From positions 640,001-704,000 of the forward strand of contig CBDBZY010000064.1 of NCBI GenBank assembly GCA_965213685.1: DNA of 64,000 nucleotides, written 5' to 3'. This document shows, piece by piece, positions 13,093-62,576 of this stretch (positions are counted from its first letter, which is position 1; each line of letters opens with the position of its first letter). The notes under the pieces are model-generated. The model was given only the letters and a program-made list of their open reading frames with translations, was not told where the DNA came from and did no database searches. This stretch comes from a bacterium. Its GTDB lineage: Bacteria; UBA8248. Position numbers and translations under genes: made by a program.

Positions 13093-13891
13093 TTAAAGGC
13101 CGCAGTATCAGAGTCAGAGGGAGCTCACGTGATAGCCAATTCCGAGAGTGGAGACTGCAAATTAGCCAATATAATGAACCGGTGCGCGGGCGGTGACGAG
13201 AAACTGACAATCTAGTTTGTGTGGCCTAGGAGAGTGAAAATAGCCATACATTAACAGTTACACTGTATCGTTGGCATTTAACTCTTTAACTACGAAAAGA
13301 ATGCATTTTGGCATTCTGTTTGATTGTTTATACTGCTGGCCACAAATACTCGATTGTGGTGAACTGGTAGTATGTGGGCACAGAAAGATCAAATAACGTG
13401 TGTATCGCGTGGTAGCGTCATACAACGCACAGGGGCGCTACAACGGGGGCGGCAACTTGTCGTTCGAAACTGCTGACTCAGCATTTTTTTATCGTACTTC
13501 GCCCGCGTTTCTACCTTTGCCTTGGGGCACGAAGGTTCATTTTTGTTCTGAATGCTTAGAAGTATTCGTTAGAGAACTAGGAGAAGTAACTCGACTGTAA
13601 ACCTAAGACTTTCTCCGTTATGCGCTCCCCGAGCAATACCGCTTCAATATACACGCGTAATGCGGGCAAGCTCGAACGGTACTCACGCAAGGCTCTATGA
13701 GCTGTCCATTTTGGAATCAAACGGTTTCTAGCCCAAGTACAGTTCTTCCATATGCATCAGCGCTCCCAACTAGCCTGGTGTCATAAAAATAAGATCCAAG
13801 GGTGCGCAAACAAATAACCGCATGTGCTAACTTGGCTAATTTTGCCTTTCCGTATATAAAGAGTTAATCAAGTCGATAAATAAGGACGAAT

Positions 13892-15427
13892 ATGTGTAGC
13901 CACTATAGAACGTCTCCCAACAAGAAGAAGGTTCTCATTGGCTATACAGTCTGCCTGACGCTTGTTGTGCTCACTTTGTTGAGCGTAAAGCAAGAAATCC
14001 AGTCTCCTATCGCCAACAACAGTGTCACGGCTGTGTACACCGGGAAGAGGACAAGCTCGCTAAGTCAGGCTAACTCAACACTAACGGCGAAGGAAAGAAA
14101 TGGACACCACACGGGGAGAGAGACGGTCAAAGTCCCACAAACAGCGGAACAGCGTGGCTACTTGGTGGTTTTGAATTTTCCAGAACAGTTAACTGCAGCC
14201 ACAGACGACCTAATCCAGTTGTACACGTTTAATCAAAAGCACTTGAAGTTAAGAATGATAGAGCCCTATGTACTAGGATCTCACCTGAAAACTGTACCTC
14301 CAGTATCTGAAGATTTCAGGTCTCTTCCACTGATTAGTGCCTTCTTGAATAGGACTGCCATGCTTACTATTCTGAAGAGGTGTTTTCATTCAGACCATGT
14401 GGACTGGCATCCTTTCCCTGATTTCCTGATCAACGCTGCCCGACAGTTCGTTGTTGTGACATTTGTTACAGCAAAAGCAACAATGTTAAATGGGAATATT
14501 TCTACCTGTAGTTCCAATATGGAACATATTGAATATGTTCTCAATTATCACTTGAAGAAGGTGAGCAATAGAGCACTTTCCAAGCATGGAGTGAACTACA
14601 CTTTCAGAGGTGTACATTCACTGTGTGTGAAAGCAATACCTGGGGAACCTTTCTCCATGAAAGATGTGGTACGGTTCATTAGAACGTGGATGACCAACAC
14701 TTCCCATGGAACTAAAGAACCTTTCTCTCCCCAATTTTCTGTTGTCATTCCAGAGTGGAGAGCTGTAAAGAACACAGAGGATCTCTTCTACTACTATGAT
14801 CCTAGTTACATAGGCAGGAATATGACAGGTTCGTGTCAGTTACGGTCTCTAGCACACACCCCATATGTTACTGAAGCTGCCAAAAGTATGTTCCAACGTC
14901 TGTCACTCTCTCGACCATTCATTGCTGTACATGTACGTTCTGAAAGAATCTCAGAACAAGAACTGAAGCGGCACAGAACAGATTTTATCAATAGCTGTAT
15001 CAGTAATTTTTCAAAGATTCTTCAGGTTGTAATGAAAGTCCACAATATATCGCTGGAAAATGTTGTATTTGTTCATGATGGGAGTCAGCATGGTAGTGAT
15101 TCAATGGGAAGTCAAAAAAGTCAAAAAAGGAGTGCATCTAATTACATTATATCAAGAATAAAGGCAATTGGGATTAAAAATGTACAATACAAATCACAAA
15201 ATAGCCCTAATAACGTCAATTCAAGTGCTACAGAATCTGCACTTGCTCAGTTTGTTGAGAAGGAGTTTCTAGTGTCAGCTGATGTTCTTATTGCACTGGG
15301 TTATGGTGGGTTCCAGGGCAGTCTCATCAGAAGGTTCAAGGCAAAGAGCAGTGGTGGAAACAATTGGTACAAACTCTGCTCTGATTATACAAAAAATGAT
15401 CGTCTTCCAGTAAACATTTCTTTCTGA
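13892..15427 (+). CDS. Type II membrane O-fucosyltransferase-like glycosyltransferase (511 aa, single coding exon)
   Basis: N-terminal KKK plus TM anchor, stem region, RPFIAVHVRSE (HxR GDP-fucose-binding motif) and ALAQFVEKEFLVSADVLIALGYGGF (motif III-like). TATATAAA at 13853; AATAAA overlaps the stop. Confidence 0.75.
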   Translation: MCSHYRTSPNKKKVLIGYTVCLTLVVLTLLSVKQEIQSPIANNSVTAVYTGKRTSSLSQANSTLTAKERNGHHTGRETVKVPQTAEQRGYLVVLNFPEQLTAATDDLIQLYTFNQKHLKLRMIEPYVLGSHLKTVPPVSEDFRSLPLISAFLNRTAMLTILKRCFHSDHVDWHPFPDFLINAARQFVVVTFVTAKATMLNGNISTCSSNMEHIEYVLNYHLKKVSNRALSKHGVNYTFRGVHSLCVKAIPGEPFSMKDVVRFIRTWMTNTSHGTKEPFSPQFSVVIPEWRAVKNTEDLFYYYDPSYIGRNMTGSCQLRSLAHTPYVTEAAKSMFQRLSLSRPFIAVHVRSERISEQELKRHRTDFINSCISNFSKILQVVMKVHNISLENVVFVHDGSQHGSDSMGSQKSQKRSASNYIISRIKAIGIKNVQYKSQNSPNNVNSSATESALAQFVEKEFLVSADVLIALGYGGFQGSLIRRFKAKSSGGNNWYKLCSDYTKNDRLPVNISF

Positions 15428-16982
15428 ATAAATGCTGAACGCCAATGAGTATAGCTACATAAAAATGCTTATGTAATACTGCACTACAAATTTCATGGTG
15501 TTCATAAGTGCACATTTTTTTGCTCTCTCAACATGTGGCACTGAAGTGATATAATGAATGTTCAAAATATGTGTAGGATATGTTTCAAGAAATGTGGAGG
15601 AGTGAGGGATAGAGTAAGTTGACTGGTTATCTCAGTTGTAGCTGATTGACATCATGTCACTCCCACACTGAGTTTATACTCTAGAGACTGAAGGCATGTG
15701 TGGGTGTCTCCAAGCATGCTACCACAGCCTGCACAGATGATACAAACATTGCTGGTTTAATACTCAACTTGGCTATAGTCTAGCCCTAGTGTCCTGCCTT
15801 GTCTTTCATGCTGTAGAGTCTGTGCACGTACACGCGTGCACATGCTATAGCCTCCGAGGCTCGTACGCTAAGCCCCCTCCTCACGCACGCGCAATCATAC
15901 AGATGACCTTTAGGATAGCGCGTGCGCAACACGTAAGCGAACGTGTAACCATAGATACTATGAACTACGTAACCGGGATTGGAAACTACGTAATTATTGC
16001 GTGCCAAAAAGCATCTGCAAATAATAACTAAATACAACTGCACCACACGCAAACATGTGGAGGATGGCATTTGTCTGCCAACAGCAAATAGTTTCCTTAG
16101 TCGCCATGTGTCATGCAGATAGAGTTTTTTCAATATCTCTATTTTTAAATACGTGTATGTGCAGCTGTCATCACACTACGTGAGTTTTAAGCTATCTATT
16201 TTTCTACTCAGCATTGTTTCTATCTCATTTTGTAACTTAGTATTCGTAGTATATTTTATCATGGGGAAGTTGGGACACTGGGTGTGTAGGGAGAGTTGGG
16301 CCCATAAAAGACTCTTTAACCTACCGCCCCAGTTCTCAAGGCTGGGCACCCAGGGTCCTGCTTTCTTGTTTTTCTGTTTTGTATGTTGTGTCTTCTGTGT
16401 TTTATGTGTACGTGAGGTTCTTTCTCTTCTTCTTTCTTAGCTAGGATGCTATAAACATGTTTTTTTCCATGATCATTACGGCTCAGAAGCGGGCCGGGAC
16501 CGGGAGGCTTGGGAGTGAGAACGCAAGTAGTCAGCTGTCTACACATTTTGTCCATACCTTCGTGGCAATTTGGAGTGTGAATGTTCATTCTGACTAGGTA
16601 GAGCCACCGCACCATTATAAATCCATTCACGTATGTAAGCCTGACACAATATGTGACTCTGAGAAAACATGTTACAGTCTCATCCTTCATATCCTAGCAA
16701 AAGATCTTTCTAGTTTAGCCACTATAGTCTAATCCCATATACGCTACGCGGAAGTAGTCAGGGGACGTTAGCACCAACGACTTGTATCTTAGGAATGTGA
16801 CATTGCGTAAGAATGCGCACGCTAATATCACGTGAACGCGGAGACACAACCCTCATACGTCAGTGTCAGTGGCTGTCAGTGGGGATACTACAAGCACAAT
16901 GGACAGGTGGCTGCTAGCGTACACTTGGTCAACTGAGATAACCTTAGCAACGTTAAAACAATCATCTCTTTTTTTGCAGTGA

Positions 16983-19180
16983 AATAGGTCCATTTCAACT
17001 GGGCTTTGTTATCACCATACCATTTGTACATGTGGATATAGAATTGGCCAAGCACAGCATGAATACTCAGTAGCTATATTCTACCACCAGCTCCTCAACT
17101 GGCTTGTTCCAGAATGCAAAGACAAACACCTTGATAAGGCACACACATACTGGACTATTGTGCTTTCAATCTCAACACTGAAATGATACACTCCCACTGT
17201 TTTCATAACTATAGAAAAGTACAGTTTCCATAGATTGTGCATGCAAGTTATTCTGAAGCACAACAAAGCACTGTTTTGACAATCATTCTCAAGGGGCATA
17301 TAAAAATGCATGAGCAATTCCTCTCAAAGCTCTGTCCAGCAGCACTTTCTTCTCACCAGCTGATTGCAGCAAGCCATGGAAGGAATCTTGGGCCTTGCCA
17401 TGGTGCTCTTGGCTACGGGACTGCTGTTTGCCCCTACTTCCTGTATGCCAATTTATGCTCCACGGGTGGGCCCAAGTTCCATCCCATCACTCCAGAGCAC
17501 TAATGGACAACCCCAAGCAAGCCGCACTTGGAACATACCACAGGCTCAGGAAGCATCTCCCAATGAACAAGTGGCAGAGAAGGAACAGCTAGGATCATTG
17601 ATTCGGGGAGCTTGGAATATCTATAGGAACAGACACACCCCCAGTGATGCATCAAACATGCAGACCAACCGGAATGACTTTGCCATGAGTGGGAAAATCA
17701 ACCTGGGTGCTCTTACTGACCAACTGAATGCTCTTACTCTCCAGCTGTTGAATAGTCAGCCCTCTGCACATACCCCAACTGAGCCAGTGGCGGAGGCTCA
17801 GCGCAAGAGGTACTGGCCAATCGTTAGGAATTTCCTGGACAACATTCTCTCTCCAACAGACGCACCAAGTGAGCAGCCTGACACAAATACACTTGCTGAG
17901 AGTCTGGAGAATACCTTGAATAGGCAGATTCTCGTAGGAGCAGGCCCTCAGCCAGTAGCTAGGACTCAGGTCTGGTCATCTATACGCAAGTTTGTGGGAG
18001 ACCTCTTCGGTAAGTCGTGCTTGATAGATTGCACGTGTTCAGATGCGTACAAGTAGGTAAATCTTACTATAATGCGACAGATTTGTATACGTGCGTACAT
18101 ATAGCAGGTTACGCACTAGCCACGTTGTATATGACTGTAAGAACTACCACGAATGTGCGTGTACATGCATTTTTTCCTCCGCAATGAGAACATTTCCTCT
18201 CCCACTCCTTCCCTCCTGTATAGCCCCAAAATGCAGCGATGCACTATACATCATGGTCTACACCGGCAGAACCAGGAATGCATCCACCGCGGACACGCCC
18301 GACGTGGAGCTGCAGGTGGGTGAGGAAACCGAATTGGTTTCTCTGCCCCAGCTCCCGGGAGAGGAATTCGTCGCAAACAAGGGAGACCTGTGGAGGATCA
18401 ACCTCTCGGACTTCGGCTTCACAGATACCTGCATCACTAAGGGAGATGTGCAGAGGATCACTCTGGTTGAGGAAGGGAACGATGGATGGCTGATAGACTC
18501 CGTCGTGACGTTCCTGAGGACCGAGGACTCCTTCACTCTGCTGTCCAGCGATATCGACGTAAGCCGCTGGATCGATGGAAATGGAGGGTCGGAGTTGGAG
18601 CGCTTCAGCCTGAGCATCGCCTAAGTACACATGTCAAACAGAGAGTGCGATTAATGTAATAATGTGAAAAAAAACACTCATCTAGAGGATTCTTTAGCCG
18701 TAGGAAGTGTGTTCCCTTCACATAATTTGTGTTGAAATAATCAAAAATACTGAAACAACCTTAGAGATGACAACGCAATGAAATATCAAAAGAAGGTACG
18801 TTTCCAAATGTGTCTGAGTTGCCATAAAGCCTCCTGTAGTACAAGTACAGCCTTAGCTGTCAAACAATGATAAAATAATACTTTTGTTCACAAACGTCCT
18901 GAACAAAACAATATAGCTACCTATTAGTACAAAAATTCCGGAACACAAGTACTTTTTCGTAGCATACACAATCTACTTCTGACTCCCTTTTTCTCAATGA
19001 CCATGTGTTGCTGATTTAATTGACAGCAAAATTATAGTAATGGTTGTCAGCTACACAGCCTTAGATGCAACAGAAGACTGTGCCCAGCTAGAACACTGCG
19101 CAGAAATGAATGCTTTGTGGCTCACAATGGCAGGTGGATTGTCACACTCTCTTCAGTATGCAGTGCACTTACATGTATGT
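16983..19180 (+). repeat. Segmental duplication copy 2 (partner 5764-7970)
   Basis: Near-identical to copy 1 with small indels. Confidence 0.95.
17376..18624 (+). CDS. Secreted protein (344 aa): signal peptide, pro-region with repeated amphipathic peptide cassettes, C-terminal PLAT/LH2-like domain; exons 17376-18009 and 18224-18624
   Basis: Signal peptide MEGILGLAMVLLATGLLFAPTSC. Phase-1 GTAAGT..TAG intron restores the frame. Exon 2 reads YIMVYTG..NAST..VEL..F..NKGDLW..GDVQRITL..GNDGWLIDSVV, matching the PLAT consensus. Confidence 0.8.
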
Positions 19181-19974: not shown

Positions 19975-20940
19975 TCATGAGTTATCAAAACTGTACTGAG
20001 AAAAGAAAGGAAATCTCTTCATCCTCCACTCAACGTACTGCACCACATCTCTCTCCCACACCACATTGTCTCTGCTCCTGGAGATGTTCCTAAAGACCTT
20101 CTCGTGGCATGCCGTAACATAGTCTGCAGGACAGGGTACCTCCAGCACTGTACAGATATGCTTTATGACCTCCTGTGGATGTCTGATGAAATCTTCACTG
20201 TGGATATCAATCACATGTGCAAACTCAGACACTTTTAGCACTGTTTCAGCAAACCAGAATATCATTTTGATGTAGTATCTCAACTTCTGAAGTTCCAAAA
20301 GTACTTGATTTCCACTCTGTCGCATGGCCCTCATGTCATCTTCATGGGCAAACCGATGCAAAGCACCGGTTGCTATCATGTCAAATGGATTTCTCACCAC
20401 ATGAAACATAACAATTGGCACTCCAACAACATCTCTTAGCATCTCAAAACAAGCCTTTGACTCATTAAAACGTCTACTAAATGTTGCAGAGAGATATCCT
20501 CCACTCTTGTCACCGATGATTTTCAGCTGACGGAATGTTCCCTGCCAAGATGTTGGGATACGTAGATTATAGCCCTTACCAATGTCCCTCTCACTCCTCC
20601 ACCCACTCATCTGGATGGCATTATTGTAGCTATTATTGTAGAGCTTGCTGAAGAGCACGCCCTTGTCCTGCAGTAGACTGGGCCTGTTCAGTAGAGCACA
20701 TTCTTCCAGTATCCTGTACTCGTGTGCTATTACAATGTTTGGGTGTGCATCCATCATGCTGCCAATGATACTGTGACCACTTCTGGGGTAGCCAATGAAG
20801 AGGACTAACTTTTCCACACCATCCACTTCAGATTGGGACAGTGAGACATTGACACCAGTTGTCTTGTCTTTGTACAGCACAGAGCACATATATAATAGCA
20901 CTAAGAATACCAGCACCACGACAACAGTACTCCTCTTCAT
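19975..20940 (-). CDS. Type II membrane (Golgi) sulfotransferase, TPST-like/Sulfotransfer_3 (321 aa from MKRSTVVVV)
   Basis: TM anchor; 5'-PSB loop LFIGYPRSGHSIIGSMMDAHPNI (TPST has FIGGVPRSGTTL..MLDAHP); GDKS; HVVRNPFD (3'-PB). Confidence 0.85.
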   Translation of the reverse strand: MKRSTVVVVLVFLVLLYMCSVLYKDKTTGVNVSLSQSEVDGVEKLVLFIGYPRSGHSIIGSMMDAHPNIVIAHEYRILEECALLNRPSLLQDKGVLFSKLYNNSYNNAIQMSGWRSERDIGKGYNLRIPTSWQGTFRQLKIIGDKSGGYLSATFSRRFNESKACFEMLRDVVGVPIVMFHVVRNPFDMIATGALHRFAHEDDMRAMRQSGNQVLLELQKLRYYIKMIFWFAETVLKVSEFAHVIDIHSEDFIRHPQEVIKHICTVLEVPCPADYVTACHEKVFRNISRSRDNVVWERDVVQYVEWRMKRFPFFSQYSFDNS

Positions 20941-21234
20941 CCTACACTTCCCTCTGTAACTCATGTAAGTAGCTAGGTGTACATATAGCTCTAGCTCTGG
21001 CATGCTCTGCACAACTACATGTGGAAACACAGCAAACGTTCTTCTGCTAGTATCTATGGGAGGACTTGCAGGCTCCATGCCATGTGTACATAGGGATATG
21101 ATGCATTGGAGGGAATGCATGAAACCCCTGGCTGGCATGCATTCCACTGCAGCTAGGTGCTTCATACCAGTAACAAATATGCAAGCTGGAATTTGCCAGT
21201 AATCAATAATAATTACATCAATTGATCTTTGTTA

Positions 21235-22987: not shown

Positions 22988-29210
<6,223 letters not shown>

Positions 29211-31405: not shown

Positions 31406-34400
31406 TCAAGCATGTGTAGAAGGCATTAATCGGTCTCTCTCAGTTGGATGTCTCTCATTCGGGTCACGAAGAGAAGGAAGATCATCATCATTGTCGCCTG
31501 CAGAAACCCTCTCCAGCCTCCACTTCTTGTACCTTGTTATCAACTTCTCTGTTGCAAGAACAATAACACACATGAGTGGTAGAAAAATCAGTACAGTTTG
31601 AATTGTCGATGTAATAATGACAGTCTTCTTCATAAATCGCTGCTCTCCTTTTCCATACACTGCTTCTGAGAAGTTGTACAGTGTAATACTATTGATGACA
31701 GTGAGGTTAGTGAGGAGCAAGGAATCAATTATGTTGTGTTTTCTTTCCTTGTAGGGTTGAAAAATTGCATGCAAAGCCAGGATTAGGATCAGCTGCAGTT
31801 CTACAACTGTATAAAACTGCAGCAGAGTTCGACAGTATGCGTAGGCAGCCAACGCAATTGCACGATAAAGAAAATATAAACCTGCAAAGAAGCGCAGGTT
31901 GTCTTTGAAAGAACTTTGAAAGGAATCCAGGAGTTGAATAGGCATTACTCTCCACAGCACAGTGGCAATCTTAGACTCGCTCAGTTTGCAAATGCCTAGT
32001 GCTTTAAAAGACAGCGGATAGAGTAGCAGGAGCAAGGGGGGAATAATGACTAATACAGTCAGAAAAATGATGGCTGTTGTTGCATACTTCAAATGCTCTG
32101 CACCCAGATAGTCCATGTGCCCACTACGATACACAACTGACTTCTCACATGACAGACCTTGGGAAAACAAGCAGAATTTGTTTAGGATTTGGAATGATAC
32201 TCGAGCGCACTGGGAATAACACAGCATGAAGAAGGCTGAAAAACCATGAATAAGGACACTCCTAGGCTTGTACATCTTCAGAAAGTAACAAAGTTTTCCA
32301 CATTTTCCTCTGCTGATAAGGATCGTTAACAAAACTAGGCCTAAGGCAACACCAACAGTCACATACTTCATCACCAATGCATCCATCACCGTAGCACTTT
32401 TCCACAAACAGAACGATAGGGACTCTAAGCTGAAAAAGTCTAAGTTAAAGAAACGATAGACAAAATGTTGTACATGGCGAATCATGACAACAAACTGTGG
32501 GAATTCTATTGCACCATTTGCATCAGTCGAAAGAGAGTCAAGGATCTGTGCAAACAGTACAAAACAACTTATGTTGCCATGTGTGAAGCTTATGTTGAAG
32601 ATTATTATGGCAATGAAGCAGAGTGTGAGGGGAAATACCTCTGACAGAATGTAGAACAACCAGCCCAAGTGGCACAGATTGTCCTCACCACATTTGTACT
32701 TCCAGGAATGGAAATGGACTGAGTGATTGGGTGCACATTTGCCACACACTCTTCCTGTTCTTGTGGGGCCACATATGAATTGATCTAATTCAGCTGATGA
32801 ATTTGGTAGAGTATGTGTATAGGAGGATGACCTTTTGGTAGTATTATATGAGCAGAATCCATATGGACAGTATGCTGTGCAGAGCTTTGTGATGTCACTT
32901 TCATCACAGTATCCCATCCAAAAGCCATTGATTAATAGAGCATTAGGATCACACCTTGCTATACCAAAGTACTCTGTTGCTGCACACTCACATCTTCCAC
33001 TCTGGTTATTGTGAGAGTATCCTGGTGGGCATGACACTAACATTATGTCCAAAATCAAAGTAACATCATATACTTCCAACATCAAGCTTGCAGAATAATT
33101 AGTAGTTCCCAAGACGTTAATTTTATTGTGAGACACTTGACCATATGCAGGGTCTACCATAACACCACCACCCTTTGACCTTATGGAAGCTCTGTAGACT
33201 ACGTCTGAGACTTTGTTGCTGGCTTCATCGGTGACATTTATGGCTAAAGAATATTCCGAGCCTGGAATCACTTCAAAGGGAAGGTTTTGTGACACATTGA
33301 AATTTACTGGGAATGTGGCAATTAATGAGGAGTTGCTGTTATTCCCATCATCAAAGTGAAAGTCACCAATGCAAGCCAGAATGTCCTGAGGGGATGAAAC
33401 ATGTGTGTCACTACAGTATTTCTTGCAAGGATGAAAAGAGGTTGCATATATTGAGTTACTGTTAGCATTTTGAGCACTGTTTTTAATAAAGTGAAATTCA
33501 GTGTTTGTCAATGGGTGCTCTGGGGAGTTGGGCTGAATGAGGCAGTTTTGGTAAGAGAGTTGTGGGATGAGGGTTTGAGAAAATATTGCACCTCCAGATA
33601 AAGATGCGGTATTACTCACAAAACAGAAGGTAGAGTCGTTGTGAATGTGAAGATTTGAAAATGCATACATTGCAATGGCACCACCATTGATTCCAGAGTT
33701 CATTGTGAATTCTACCTCAGAATGCTGGCTGAACTCCAGCACACTACCAGACAGGTAGACTGCTGAACCACTGTTGTTGACAAAGACTATGTTCTGTTCA
33801 AATGTCACCTTACATTGGCTGATGAATACTGTCCCGAACCCTGAAATACGTTTTCTGGTACTATTGCTTAATTTGACTGAGCGATGGGAAGCTTTGTTCA
33901 TAGAGAATGTGCAGTTGGAAAAGGATATATCTGACAGCACTCCTTGTTTGGTGTAGTCCCAGATACCAGGTGAGATGTACACAGCAGCTCCTGTTGGGGA
34001 ATGGTTGTTTGTCCAGACACTCTTCACAAAACGCACTGTGTTGTTTTGGGCCTCATGTTGTTTGGTACTGAAAACAGCTAATCCTCCACCCATTTTGGCA
34101 TAGTTGTGATGGAATTTGCACCTCTGGCACAAGAATGAGTTGTAATCAGGGACCATCTGCTTCACATCAGACTGCTTGTAGAGCATTAATCCAATTGCAA
34201 TTCCTCCACCTCCGTAGAGAGTGCACTCATTATCCCTAAATGCTGAGTTGTGAAGAGCAACACTGTTGTTTTTTGGAGAGTTTAGCCATTCCGCATTGAG
34301 TCCCCCACCCCATAGCCTAGCTGAGTTGCTTCTAAACATAGTGTCCTTAATGATAACAGTGTTGTATGATGAGCTATCGAAATATCCGATGTAAAGTCCA

Positions 34401-35308
34401 CCACCCCAGTATGCTGCATGGTTATGCTGGAAGACACACTGAACAATGTGTATAACATTATTGGAGGTATTAGACCCAATTTTTATGTACATCCCACCAC
34501 CTTGCCCACTGCTTGGAACAACTGAATGTGGTGTGTAATATTTCACTGTTTCATTCATTTTATCACCTGCATAGTTGTGTGCAAAGGTAGTGTTGCGTAT
34601 GGTGTATGTGGCGTCTCTACCAACACTCTCACACTGTGTACAGTTGCAAGGGGTACAGCTAGTGAACTTAATGTTTAGTCCACCCCCTCCAGCTGTTAAT
34701 GGATGCTTCATTGAGTTGGTGTGAAGAGCACAATTTTCAATTGTCACCACTCCATTTGTGTTGTGAACAGAAAGACCTGTACCATTGGAGTGTGTTAGAA
34801 CTACATACCGTATATTCAAGTGGATGCAGTTGAGAATGTACAAGGCAGAGTTGAGGAACAAAGCCGTATTTGATTCTGCATCATAGCTATCATGCTGCAC
34901 TCCACAGTGCTGGAGAGTCACTGACGAAATAGTAAGATTCTGAATACAAGCAAAATACAAACCAGCATCTGGCATACTGCAGTTGATTACTATTCCAGTA
35001 CTGGTATTTGCTGGTGTGAGAGTGAGATCAGTGAATTGAAAAAACTTCACATGTGATGTCATGTTCAGGTGAGGACTGTGAACTTCAATCACCAGTGGGC
35101 TGTTCTTCAATTGCTGTAAGTTGTTAGCGACAAATTCAAGAGACTTGCACATATGCTCTGAAGAATTTGAAATCAAACATGTTTCATTATCAAATCCATC
35201 CTTGCCATCGATGTAGACAAAATGCCCTTTATCAGATGTACTGCTAACATTCCAAGACATCCAAACCACTAGCAGAAGAGCTAGAGTACCACTCTTTACA
35301 ATGGCCAT
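31406..35308 (-). CDS. 1300-aa intronless cell-surface protein: signal peptide, pectin-lyase-like beta-helix repeats (FxxN..GGA/GGG), Cys-rich stalk, multi-pass TM C-terminus
   Basis: Long uninterrupted ORF. Repeated FxxNxA..GGG/GGAI motifs, CPPGY..CEC and CGPTRTGRVCGKC, seven or more hydrophobic segments and a QPYK..HNIID motif. TATAAATA lies ~45 bp upstream. Confidence 0.85.
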   Translation of the reverse strand: MAIVKSGTLALLLVVWMSWNVSSTSDKGHFVYIDGKDGFDNETCLISNSSEHMCKSLEFVANNLQQLKNSPLVIEVHSPHLNMTSHVKFFQFTDLTLTPANTSTGIVINCSMPDAGLYFACIQNLTISSVTLQHCGVQHDSYDAESNTALFLNSALYILNCIHLNIRYVVLTHSNGTGLSVHNTNGVVTIENCALHTNSMKHPLTAGGGGLNIKFTSCTPCNCTQCESVGRDATYTIRNTTFAHNYAGDKMNETVKYYTPHSVVPSSGQGGGMYIKIGSNTSNNVIHIVQCVFQHNHAAYWGGGLYIGYFDSSSYNTVIIKDTMFRSNSARLWGGGLNAEWLNSPKNNSVALHNSAFRDNECTLYGGGGIAIGLMLYKQSDVKQMVPDYNSFLCQRCKFHHNYAKMGGGLAVFSTKQHEAQNNTVRFVKSVWTNNHSPTGAAVYISPGIWDYTKQGVLSDISFSNCTFSMNKASHRSVKLSNSTRKRISGFGTVFISQCKVTFEQNIVFVNNSGSAVYLSGSVLEFSQHSEVEFTMNSGINGGAIAMYAFSNLHIHNDSTFCFVSNTASLSGGAIFSQTLIPQLSYQNCLIQPNSPEHPLTNTEFHFIKNSAQNANSNSIYATSFHPCKKYCSDTHVSSPQDILACIGDFHFDDGNNSNSSLIATFPVNFNVSQNLPFEVIPGSEYSLAINVTDEASNKVSDVVYRASIRSKGGGVMVDPAYGQVSHNKINVLGTTNYSASLMLEVYDVTLILDIMLVSCPPGYSHNNQSGRCECAATEYFGIARCDPNALLINGFWMGYCDESDITKLCTAYCPYGFCSYNTTKRSSSYTHTLPNSSAELDQFICGPTRTGRVCGKCAPNHSVHFHSWKYKCGEDNLCHLGWLFYILSEVFPLTLCFIAIIIFNISFTHGNISCFVLFAQILDSLSTDANGAIEFPQFVVMIRHVQHFVYRFFNLDFFSLESLSFCLWKSATVMDALVMKYVTVGVALGLVLLTILISRGKCGKLCYFLKMYKPRSVLIHGFSAFFMLCYSQCARVSFQILNKFCLFSQGLSCEKSVVYRSGHMDYLGAEHLKYATTAIIFLTVLVIIPPLLLLLYPLSFKALGICKLSESKIATVLWRVMPIQLLDSFQSSFKDNLRFFAGLYFLYRAIALAAYAYCRTLLQFYTVVELQLILILALHAIFQPYKERKHNIIDSLLLTNLTVINSITLYNFSEAVYGKGEQRFMKKTVIITSTIQTVLIFLPLMCVIVLATEKLITRYKKWRLERVSAGDNDDDLPSLRDPNERHPTERDRLMPSTHA

Positions 35309-35509
35309 CCTCTGGACTGCTCTTAACTAAAATGCAGTACATGGCATAGTGCTATTTATACCACTTCATGCACAGAATTGTGACTTACTGCACCTTTTGT
35401 GTAGGCTTGGGACAGCATCATGAATACTGAACACTTTCATTGTTTCTTCATGTATCCAAAAACACTCAGTTGCTTATGCTTGGGAACAACAGAAGCGTTT
35501 CTAAACTGT

Positions 35510-43430: not shown

Positions 43431-43608
43431 ACTGTTCAAAAACTCCTAGCTGCTAGACTCTACATTACACACTACATTATCTATGGTCCCATGATAGAAT
43501 CATGGCAATTACATCACTTTTACGCAAAAATCTGCACGACCATCCTCATTACGGATGTACGTATAACTAACAACACAGGGTCTTAGTGCAGTGACTCCTC
43601 GATTCTTC

Positions 43609-44862
43609 ATGGATACTAACGTAACCAACTCGAGCGACAACGCTACGGCGTGTTATTTCGAGGGTGGGTCAGACGCTACTTCCAATACCAACTCCGACTG
43701 GAACGTCTATCCACCAGAACCGGAAGAGAGAGTCGACAACGGATACTTCAATGTCCTTCTATTCGGAAAAACAGGCATGGGGAAAAGTACAACAGGAAAC
43801 AAACTTTTAAACAGCCACTCAGCAGAGCAGGTCATTCGCCGATGGGAGATGGAAGGGGACGAGGGATACCTGTTGGTTCCTAGCGGAGAGGATGGCGAGC
43901 CAAAGTACTTCGAAGAAGGAAAGGAAGACTCAACCAAATCTACGACAACGGTTTGTGAACTTCTCAGCGACGAAAGCGGAGAATTGGACGGAACCAAGTT
44001 TCGCGTTCTGGACGTGGAAGGATTTGCTCCAACTAACCGCGGTGAGGGCGAGTCTTGCAAGCAGAAAAATCTTTCCATTCTACGCAGAGTGGTGAAAGTT
44101 CAAAACTCTATGAATCTTTGCTTTTCTCGAATCCTTTACTTTATTCCCTCACGCGGACGGCTCCAGAAAGCGGACTATAACATCTTCGAAGAACTTCAGG
44201 TCTTACATCACTTCTTTGGCAGAGACATATTCCACGCCATGATCGTTATTGCTACGGAAGACCCACTGGATGACGTACAAGAGTGGCCACAAAGAAAACT
44301 AGAACTGACAAAGGCAGCATTTTTAGATGCTTTATGTGAAGTCATCGGCCGAACTCACGATCCCCCTGATCCACCAATTGTGTTTTTACCACACTCAGCA
44401 ACCGCTAGTAAGGTCAGGATGTCGATTAAGAGCATTCATGTGAACTGCGAGTCGTTTGTTTTGAAGTTTCGTCAGGGAGTGTGTCACCGCTGTGGACTGG
44501 AGTTCACAGCTCGAAAAGTGGACGGAAAGGTATTCGGCCTAACCTGCACTGCAGACACAAGGACTATCCCATACGGTGAAACCAAATGCCATCCTATGAT
44601 AGTTACCAAGTTCACAGGAGTCGAAAAGTTTGCCGCTAATGTGATACACATTGCGACTTTAGGAGCAACGTACGTTTACAGAAAGAGCCTTGGCATTCCT
44701 GGCTTTGGTGTGAGCTCGCATGAGTGGTGTCCACATTGTCAACAGAAACCAGGTTCTCCGGGCTGTATTCCAGTGGAACAAATCTATGAATACCGTCCAA
44801 GGGAGAGTCTGTATTGTACAACTGTACAGGTCAATCACTCAAGCAATATCAAAGAGTCATGA
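43609..44862 (+). CDS. AIG1/GIMAP-like P-loop GTPase with Cys/His-rich C-terminus (intronless, 417 aa)
   Basis: VLLFGKTGMGKSTTGNKLL (G1), STT (G2), VLDVEGF (G3), FG..IF..MIVIAT (AIG1 box). C-terminal CHRC, CHP, CPHC..PGSPGC. Confidence 0.8.
   Translation: MDTNVTNSSDNATACYFEGGSDATSNTNSDWNVYPPEPEERVDNGYFNVLLFGKTGMGKSTTGNKLLNSHSAEQVIRRWEMEGDEGYLLVPSGEDGEPKYFEEGKEDSTKSTTTVCELLSDESGELDGTKFRVLDVEGFAPTNRGEGESCKQKNLSILRRVVKVQNSMNLCFSRILYFIPSRGRLQKADYNIFEELQVLHHFFGRDIFHAMIVIATEDPLDDVQEWPQRKLELTKAAFLDALCEVIGRTHDPPDPPIVFLPHSATASKVRMSIKSIHVNCESFVLKFRQGVCHRCGLEFTARKVDGKVFGLTCTADTRTIPYGETKCHPMIVTKFTGVEKFAANVIHIATLGATYVYRKSLGIPGFGVSSHEWCPHCQQKPGSPGCIPVEQIYEYRPRESLYCTTVQVNHSSNIKES

Positions 44863-46833: not shown

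Positions 46834-62576
<15,743 letters not shown>

Follow-up and report, generated by a model that had tools for sequence, protein, structure and literature searches.

A protein predicted to be secreted, in which repeated amphipathic segments stand ahead of a fold known for docking on membranes, might be a store of peptides or might work in one piece. This question is raised by a two-exon gene of animal type within a 64,000-nucleotide stretch of DNA (contig CBDBZY010000064.1 of assembly GCA_965213685.1, positions 640,001 to 704,000 of the forward strand; the whole stretch is called the window here). A preliminary description of the window recognised a secretory start, three short amphipathic segments ("cassettes") each behind a VAxxQ-like motif, and a PLAT domain, and proposed that cuts after A-x-x-Q set free several membrane-active peptides. 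The secretory start, the amphipathic repeat behind VAxxQ and the PLAT domain have stood up to analysis; the peptide-releasing polyprotein has not. We conclude instead, with moderate confidence, that the locus is a lineage-specific eukaryotic gene for an intact, secreted two-module protein which binds a lipid or membrane surface and whose helices stay attached.

An intact two-exon gene with a secretory-type start

The gene is the intact member (copy 2) of a tandem pair and consists of two exons on the forward strand, separated by a GT-AG intron (Table 1). Its start codon, the ATG at 17376, opens a frame of 211 codons that runs up to the GT donor at 18010; the acceptor AG (18222-18223) is preceded by a pyrimidine-rich tract, and the phase 1 junction joins G to CC as an alanine codon. 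The spliced open reading frame (ORF) measures 1035 nt, that is 344 codons and a TAA stop, which bears out the two-exon, 344-residue product claimed earlier. Contigs from four sequencing runs (one study) cross the intron; they are unspliced, contain no exon joints and are genomic, hence silent on expression and splicing. Upstream of the gene, TATAAAAA resembles a TATA box and may act as a promoter element; its counterpart at copy 1 is TATAAAGA. By hydrophobicity scan, the protein begins with an uncharged hydrophobic core (residues 3-18) followed by PTSC. The signal peptide of the preliminary description is therefore kept here as a signal-peptide-like segment, giving the protein a secretory-type N-terminus from which secretion would be expected.

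The repeated unit is larger than the cassette

The three quoted cassettes are present letter for letter, and the motif W-x-x-[VI]-R-x-F-[LV]-x-x-[IL] said to be shared by cassettes 2 and 3 is correct. In a scan of the window protein all three coincide with peaks of the helical hydrophobic moment (muH), with one further peak in a "spacer" (LAESLENTLNR). Four non-overlapping 11-mers have a muH of at least 0.6; composition shuffles average 1.06 such 11-mers, and 20 of 2000 contain four or more, so the reported helical periodicity exceeds chance. An A-x-x-Q motif had been claimed before every cassette; it precedes cassettes 2 and 3, and the first motif (VAEKEQ) is A-x-x-x-Q.

Smith-Waterman alignment of residues 60-135 (unit 1) with residues 136-211 (units 2 and 3) gives a score of 45, against 22.9 +/- 4.0 after shuffling, with 2 of 2000 shuffles reaching 45; unit 2 against unit 3 scores 33, against 16.5 +/- 3.7, with 4 of 2000 reaching 33. 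The alignment spans motif, cassette and spacer, and the internal repeat unit is thus larger than the cassette.

These observations bear in two directions on the release of peptides from a polyprotein. The repeated motif-plus-helix units are real, their amphipathic peaks exceed chance, and a signal-peptide-like start followed by tandemly repeated units is what a multi-peptide precursor displays. Against release, the spacers are themselves part of the repeat, the first motif departs from A-x-x-Q, and recognised processing signals (dibasic or furin sites, X-Pro/X-Ala, Gly amidation) flanking each cassette were not found on reading the sequence. A single basic cluster lies near the cassettes, RKR143-145, inside cassette 2 as first delimited, and no signal follows any cassette. 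The net charges are also low, at +3, +3 and +1 for cassettes 1, 2 and 3 (the PLAT domain carries -14). An invariant proline (in YWP) falls inside cassette 2.

Pfam returned no family for either exon product even at E ≤ 10, and no meaningful family for 11 exon-1 homologues; an ESM Atlas search with the exon 1 product gave nothing usable. Structure prediction of exon-1 residues 64-211 and the PLAT domain as a complex scored 0.01, below the mark and evidence neither way.

Exon 2 encodes a divergent PLAT domain

The exon 2 domain was modelled with AlphaFold2 from an alignment (A2) of 86 listed relatives and the two window copies, leaving out multi-domain proteins and many short fragments. The model reaches a predicted local distance difference test score (pLDDT) of 96.4 and a predicted template modelling score of 0.89. 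Superposition with VIA-align on residues 252-370 of alpha-toxin gives a Z of 16.5 and a root-mean-square deviation (rmsd) of 1.6 Å over 114 residues; Z is 11-13 for lipoxygenase PLAT domains and 8-9 for lipase C-terminal domains. Foldseek found 50 matches at E ≤ 0.001 with probability 1.00, all listed rows being lipoxygenase or alpha-toxin. When the A2 profile was compared with PDB sequences, five alpha-toxin/phospholipase C matches were found, in the C-terminal PLAT domain, at E 2.1e-5 to 1.6e-4; a sixth match (E 0.16) was unrelated. The predicted structure thus firmly places exon 2 in the PLAT/LH2 fold, and the earlier assignment was right.

Single-sequence and family-model searches gave little. 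Pfam PF01477 (gathering score) has no match to the window domain at E ≤ 10, nor to its subfamily, and the Pfam ATS3 model (PF06232) does not match the window protein. Phmmer with the exon-2 domain alone against PDB sequences returned a chance match only (E 1.3), and the ESM Atlas leads for exon 2, to PLAT and ATS3, were weak, with recognition below the usual mark. Because Pfam is blank, yet profile and fold reach PLAT, we assign the domain to a divergent PLAT branch that lacks a Pfam model.

This branch is extensive. At E ≤ 0.001, a full HMMER search of 1.84 billion representatives yielded 286 sequences related to the exon-2 product, of which 165 also pass E ≤ 1e-10; most of the 286 are 120-230 residues long. 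A Pfam scan covered 37 of the 150 listed matches: 26 were without any family at E ≤ 0.1, four had sub-threshold PLAT matches (16.4-19.8 bits against a cut-off of 23), and three had weak ATS3 matches. Among these three only the six-domain protein P0014 lies above the cut-off (35 against 27 bits), and no single stretch of it passes alone. Other family members consist of a signal peptide, an N-terminal region that varies and a single PLAT-like domain. Tandem arrays of the domain also occur (the 768-residue P0014 has six copies, P0019 three), and in P0094 it follows two SRCR domains; the arrays and this fusion suggest an extracellular module that is mobile and has exon borders as its limits. A search for longer homologues of the domain found none, which is weak evidence, and the one locus returned by a metagenome scan, which matched within a bacterial-looking ORF, was rejected as chance similarity. 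No description of the PLAT-like family was found in the open-access literature searched.

Conservation extends over whole units

For the exon 1 product ten homologues were found, at 53-94% identity. Several of them lie on single contigs of 1.3 and 1.9 Mb, and we therefore take them to form paralogue arrays in related genomes. Regional conservation was measured as mean pairwise identity among 11 exon-1 sequences, on protein only. It is highest in VAEAQ (0.96) and VARTQ (0.93), declines through spacer helix 1 (0.87), cassette 2 (0.81), spacer 2a (0.79), cassette 3 (0.78) and spacer helix 2 (0.76), and is lowest in cassette 1 (0.50). The preliminary description had proposed to test the conservation of A-x-x-Q and the cassettes against that of the spacers. 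The motifs are indeed kept; cassettes 2 and 3 (0.78-0.81), on the other hand, are no more conserved than the spacers (0.76-0.87), which speaks against peptides being released from between them, but cassette 1 is clearly more variable. The extra segment of paralogue P0013 is Arg-rich and hydrophobic, with about eight Arg, and resembles a hybrid of cassettes 2 and 1.

Comparison of the two copies in the window adds little on selection. There are 18 mismatches in exon 1, five in exon 2 and none in the intron. Of the 22 codons that differ, six are synonymous; the other 16 comprise 15 replacements and the TGA at codon 74 of copy 1, which reproduces exactly the count of 15 amino-acid changes and one stop given earlier. 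The cassettes are free of replacements, as claimed; the stop, placed earlier at the start of cassette 1, lies inside it, at the third residue. The identity of the cassettes between the copies is the only argument that the polyprotein can draw from the window sequence. However, the chance that none of 15 replacements falls within the 45 cassette residues is 0.12, the 3' half is near-identical overall, as if homogenised, and the intron lacks mismatches, so this identity says nothing on selection. P0004, a protein of another record, shares the residues that set copy 1 apart, yet has Ser at codon 74; the stop is therefore not common to all records.

Distant full-length relatives point to packed helices

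Two spliced relatives, P0168 (353 aa) and P0175 (323 aa), are available at full length. A tree of 91 rows unites their PLAT domains with that of the window in a 9-row clade, with a value of 97 in the Shimodaira-Hasegawa-like approximate likelihood ratio test. BLASTP aligns residues 147-211 of the window protein with residues 141-202 of P0168 in one block (pairwise E 9e-5), and the unit of cassette 2, spacer and cassette 3 is retained in both relatives. A joint MAFFT alignment of full-length proteins and exon fragments put exon 1 onto the PLAT domain and was discarded. The helical repeat extension is without known relatives outside a small clade.

In the AlphaFold2 model of P0168, helices are predicted at residues 138-152, 160-174 and 185-203 (block pLDDT 81-88), and residues 21-88 score below 50. 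The first of these helices aligns with cassette 2 and the third with cassette 3, and helix 160-174 lies in the stretch aligned to spacer helix 2 of the window protein. One cysteine is present per cassette helix in each relative (Cys 147/197 in P0168, Cys 119/170 in P0175), at the positions of F153 and F206 in the window protein; a second cysteine pair lies in the PLAT domain of both. The paired exchange of Phe/Phe for Cys/Cys suggests that the two helices touch in the folded protein, and packed helices argue against peptide release.

The relatives also speak to cleavage at the motif. Both keep A-x-x-Q ahead of the cassette-3 helix, and one of them also has it ahead of cassette 2, as the polyprotein would predict. 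In the model of P0168, however, the A-Q of its motif ARAQ forms the first turn of a confident helix, and the cassette counterparts of P0168 have charges of -2 and +1 and are not cationic.

A proposed intact protein that would bind lipid surfaces

The PLAT fold is a membrane- or lipid-surface-docking module in alpha-toxin, lipoxygenases and lipases, and for this reason binding to a lipid or membrane surface is the most likely activity of the window protein. Domains of this superfamily are expected to bind membranes, lipids or a partner protein, in many cases depending on Ca2+. In the mechanism that we favour, the signal peptide would be followed by a Pro/Gln/Ser-rich stretch, probably disordered, and then by proline-punctuated amphipathic helices arranged in repeat units, each a VAxxQ-capped helix and a spacer helix. 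Cassette 2, spacer helix 2 and cassette 3 make up the last of these and would form a small helical unit directly before the PLAT beta-sandwich. By analogy with known PLAT proteins, the protein would dock on a lipid or membrane surface through its PLAT domain, and the amphipathic helices could add to, gate or mask that binding. The protein may also be cut once, at the dibasic site conserved ahead of YWP.

Several observations weigh against this picture. VAEAQ and VARTQ are the best conserved parts of exon 1, and a recognition or cleavage site would look alike. Cassette 1 is hypervariable, being duplicated, expanded or deleted in P0007, P0008, P0011, P0012 and P0013, the last of which bears one more cassette, strongly cationic, behind VAEAQ. 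The helix model comes from P0168, not from the window protein's own N-terminal region, and the P0168 alignment, deep over PLAT, holds two sequences over the helices, with the contacts between helices and to PLAT being inferred. The match of the exon-1 alignment to P0175 by hhalign is weak (probability 1.6%, E 0.031). The ratio of non-synonymous to synonymous differences per site (pN/pS) between the copies is 0.83. No RNA run was listed among the sequencing runs that contain the locus.

The alternative that survives best, which we nevertheless consider unlikely, is a proprotein cut once by furin or a related proprotein convertase after the basic pair or triplet before YWP (RKR145). Residues 24-145 would then be a pro-region, and the mature protein (146-344) would consist of helix, spacer helix, helix and PLAT domain, a product that partly overlaps the one we prefer. 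Two or three basic residues stand immediately before YWP in 14 of 14 exon-1 homologues examined, and region 24-142 is faster-evolving, 15 of the 22 differing codons falling in codons 1-104. Moreover, six of 30 family N-termini judged by eye (P0024, P0029, P0031, P0046, P0063 and P0118) show a hydrophobic segment, an acidic segment and [KR]R ahead of PLAT. The basic residues may, however, simply belong to the helix, and P0168 and P0175 lack a basic pair at this position, their RR lying upstream of all helices.

It seems to us improbable that the helices and spacers form a scaffold which, anchored by PLAT, presents and releases a hypervariable cationic peptide of the cassette-1 type, with VAxxQ as non-canonical recognition or cleavage sites. 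Host-defence peptides often show such variability and such cationic extra units.

The polyprotein originally proposed, in which cuts after A-x-x-Q would free three cationic amphipathic peptides, active on membranes or antimicrobial, and a helix-PLAT module, is very improbable. The conservation of VAxxQ and the variation of cassette 1 in sequence and number, with the added cassette of P0013, would suit it. Equal conservation of the spacers, their place in the repeat unit, the low charges and the cysteine pairs of the distant relatives count against it, and we know of no secretory-pathway protease that cuts after AxxQ. Stepwise X-Pro/X-Ala dipeptide trimming to an N-terminal Gln was considered and fits only unit 2 (EP-VA-EA before Q142); picornavirus-3C-like AxxQ/G specificity is irrelevant to a secreted animal protein. 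Neither a PLAT-linked peptide precursor nor this architecture or these peptide strings were found in the open-access literature searched, where the mention of PLAT in the available part of PMC4890752 refers to an unrelated PKD1-like protein.

Least probable of all is a recently duplicated family that is decaying and has hardly any function here, or none, a reading which the in-frame TGA of copy 1, the pN/pS value and the missing RNA runs would fit, but against which stand the intact copy 2, the stop-free P0004 (an allele-like form of copy 1), open exon-1 frames in at least ten paralogues or orthologues, a PLAT domain kept across 286 representative clusters, and spliced transcripts in relatives.

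Comparison with known PLAT proteins and peptide precursors

The C-domain of alpha-toxin, the clostridial zinc phospholipase C, is both the best structural match and the only significant PDB profile match (E 2.1e-5). It shares with the window domain the motifs A-G/S-T/S-D, P-G-acidic-acidic-F/Y and D-G-W. In alpha-toxin and in the window protein alike, a helical region would stand ahead of PLAT; Foldseek superposes the full P0168 model on alpha-toxin over 200-250 columns at an rmsd of 11-17, a similarity of domain order only. In contrast to alpha-toxin, the window protein is without a phospholipase C catalytic domain (exon 1 is blank in Pfam), is eukaryotic, has an intron and carries short repeat helices.

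Animal lipoxygenases (coral 8R-LOX, human 5-LOX and 15-LOX-2) begin with PLAT/C2-like domains of the same fold, which act in membrane targeting; the window protein differs in lacking a catalytic domain, in its predicted secretion and in standing alone. In precursors of several host-defence peptides or neuropeptides, such as those of the apidaecin type and of cnidarian neuropeptides, each peptide is bordered at either end by dibasic, furin, dipeptidyl-peptidase or Gly-amidation signals. The window protein is like them in its signal-peptide-like start, its tandem units of spacer and peptide and the varying number of units in paralogues, and unlike them in having one dibasic site only, spacers that are not freer to vary than the peptides, and a folded domain after the repeats. 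Plant single-PLAT proteins (PLAT-plant-stress proteins, Arabidopsis PLAT1) are described in the accessible part of PMC4232524 as small, with one PLAT-type domain. These and ATS3 proteins belong to another kingdom and have no helical repeat, and the window protein matches neither Pfam model.

Eukaryotic DNA in a bacterial assembly

The DNA of the window is eukaryotic and lies in a bacterial assembly. This assembly (7.97 Mb, 71 contigs) was scored as prokaryotic and 94% "complete"; next to contigs of about 61-69% GC it has 22 others at 33-54% GC, about 4.9 Mb by our own sum, and the latter include the 1.64-Mb contig of the window. Since the window carries intron-split eukaryotic genes, it is probably DNA of a host that was binned together with a symbiont or associate; such genes are shown for the window only, not for the other low-GC contigs.

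The features of the window are collected in Table 1. The pieces of the V-type ATPase gene are separated by long low-complexity or microsatellite introns, and two of the three tRNA-model matches fall inside this region, possibly as tRNA genes or as repeats derived from tRNAs. The window also contains fragments of retroelements and long microsatellites; the reverse-transcriptase fragment is accordingly read as retroelement debris in the spacer between the gene copies. The 1306-residue ORF matches no Pfam family at E ≤ 0.001.

Table 1. Features of the 64,000-nucleotide window, by position.
Feature	Position	Strand	Remarks
Tandem copy (copy 1)	6168..7416	+	exons 6168-6801 and 7016-7416; TGA at codon 74 (6387-6389)
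Reverse-transcriptase fragment between copies	8239..8589	-	PF00078, E 2e-7
515-aa single-exon ORF between the two gene copies	13880..15427	+	no family found (Pfam)
Duplicated block around copy 2	16978..19180	+	partner 5757-7972; 95.6% identity over 2232 columns
TATA-box-like element TATAAAAA	17299..17306	+	about 70-77 nt upstream of ATG; read from sequence
Exon 1, codons 1-211 and first base of codon 212	17376..18009	+	signal-peptide-like start, Pro/Gln/Ser-rich stretch, three repeat units
Signal-peptide-like segment, residues 1-23	17376..17444	+	hydrophobicity scan; kept in paralogues
VAEKEQ motif and cassette 1, residues 66-86	17571..17633	+	most variable and copy-number-variable part of family
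Spacer helix 1 (predicted), residues 110-128, LGALTDQLNALTLQLLNSQ	17703..17759	+	conserved; inside internal repeat
VAEAQ, RKR and cassette 2 (residues 143-159)	17787..17852	+	VAEAQ 17787-17801, RKR 17802-17810; invariant YWP
Spacer helix 2 (predicted), residues 173-188, LAESLENTLNRQILVG	17892..17939	+	muH reaches 0.60; in stretch aligned to P0168
VARTQ and cassette 3, residues 194-211	17955..18008	+	continues directly into PLAT domain
Intron, 214 nt, phase 1	18010..18223	+	GT...AG; spliced relatives P0168 and P0175 join homologous parts
Exon 2, predicted PLAT-fold beta-sandwich and TAA stop	18224..18624	+	two Cys, NAS sequon
Sulfotransferase-like single-exon ORF	19975..21231	-	PF13469, E 1.3e-6
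(CA)n-type microsatellite with variants, about 0.9 kb	26600..27500		yields GC skew of -0.48 in the 26-28 kb bin
1306-aa uninterrupted ORF	31406..35326	-	signal-like start, Asn/Ser/Gly-rich repeat-like ectodomain, Cys-rich stretch, C-terminal hydrophobic segments
AIG1-type GTPase single-exon ORF	43567..44862	+	PF04548, E 1e-7
tRNA-model matches	48574-48645, 55891-55963, 60037-60109	+	57, 35.7 and 34 bits
V-type ATPase 116-kDa (a) subunit	53354..62576	+	at least 8 ordered exon-bearing ORFs; PF01496 profile positions 229-815

Implications

Megabases of eukaryotic DNA, probably from a host, are present in an entry classed as a prokaryotic genome, a point that matters to all who use this entry. Were the scaffold reading true, in which a cassette-1-type peptide is presented and released, the gene would represent a host-defence precursor of a new kind, one joined to a domain for membrane targeting. 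For the family as a whole, a PLAT-like group of 286 clusters is without a Pfam model, and a family model together with the biochemical characterisation of one member would allow many orphan proteins to be annotated. If, as we favour, the helices gate or add to the lipid binding of the PLAT domain, the window protein would be a simple natural membrane binder made of amphipathic helices and a PLAT domain.

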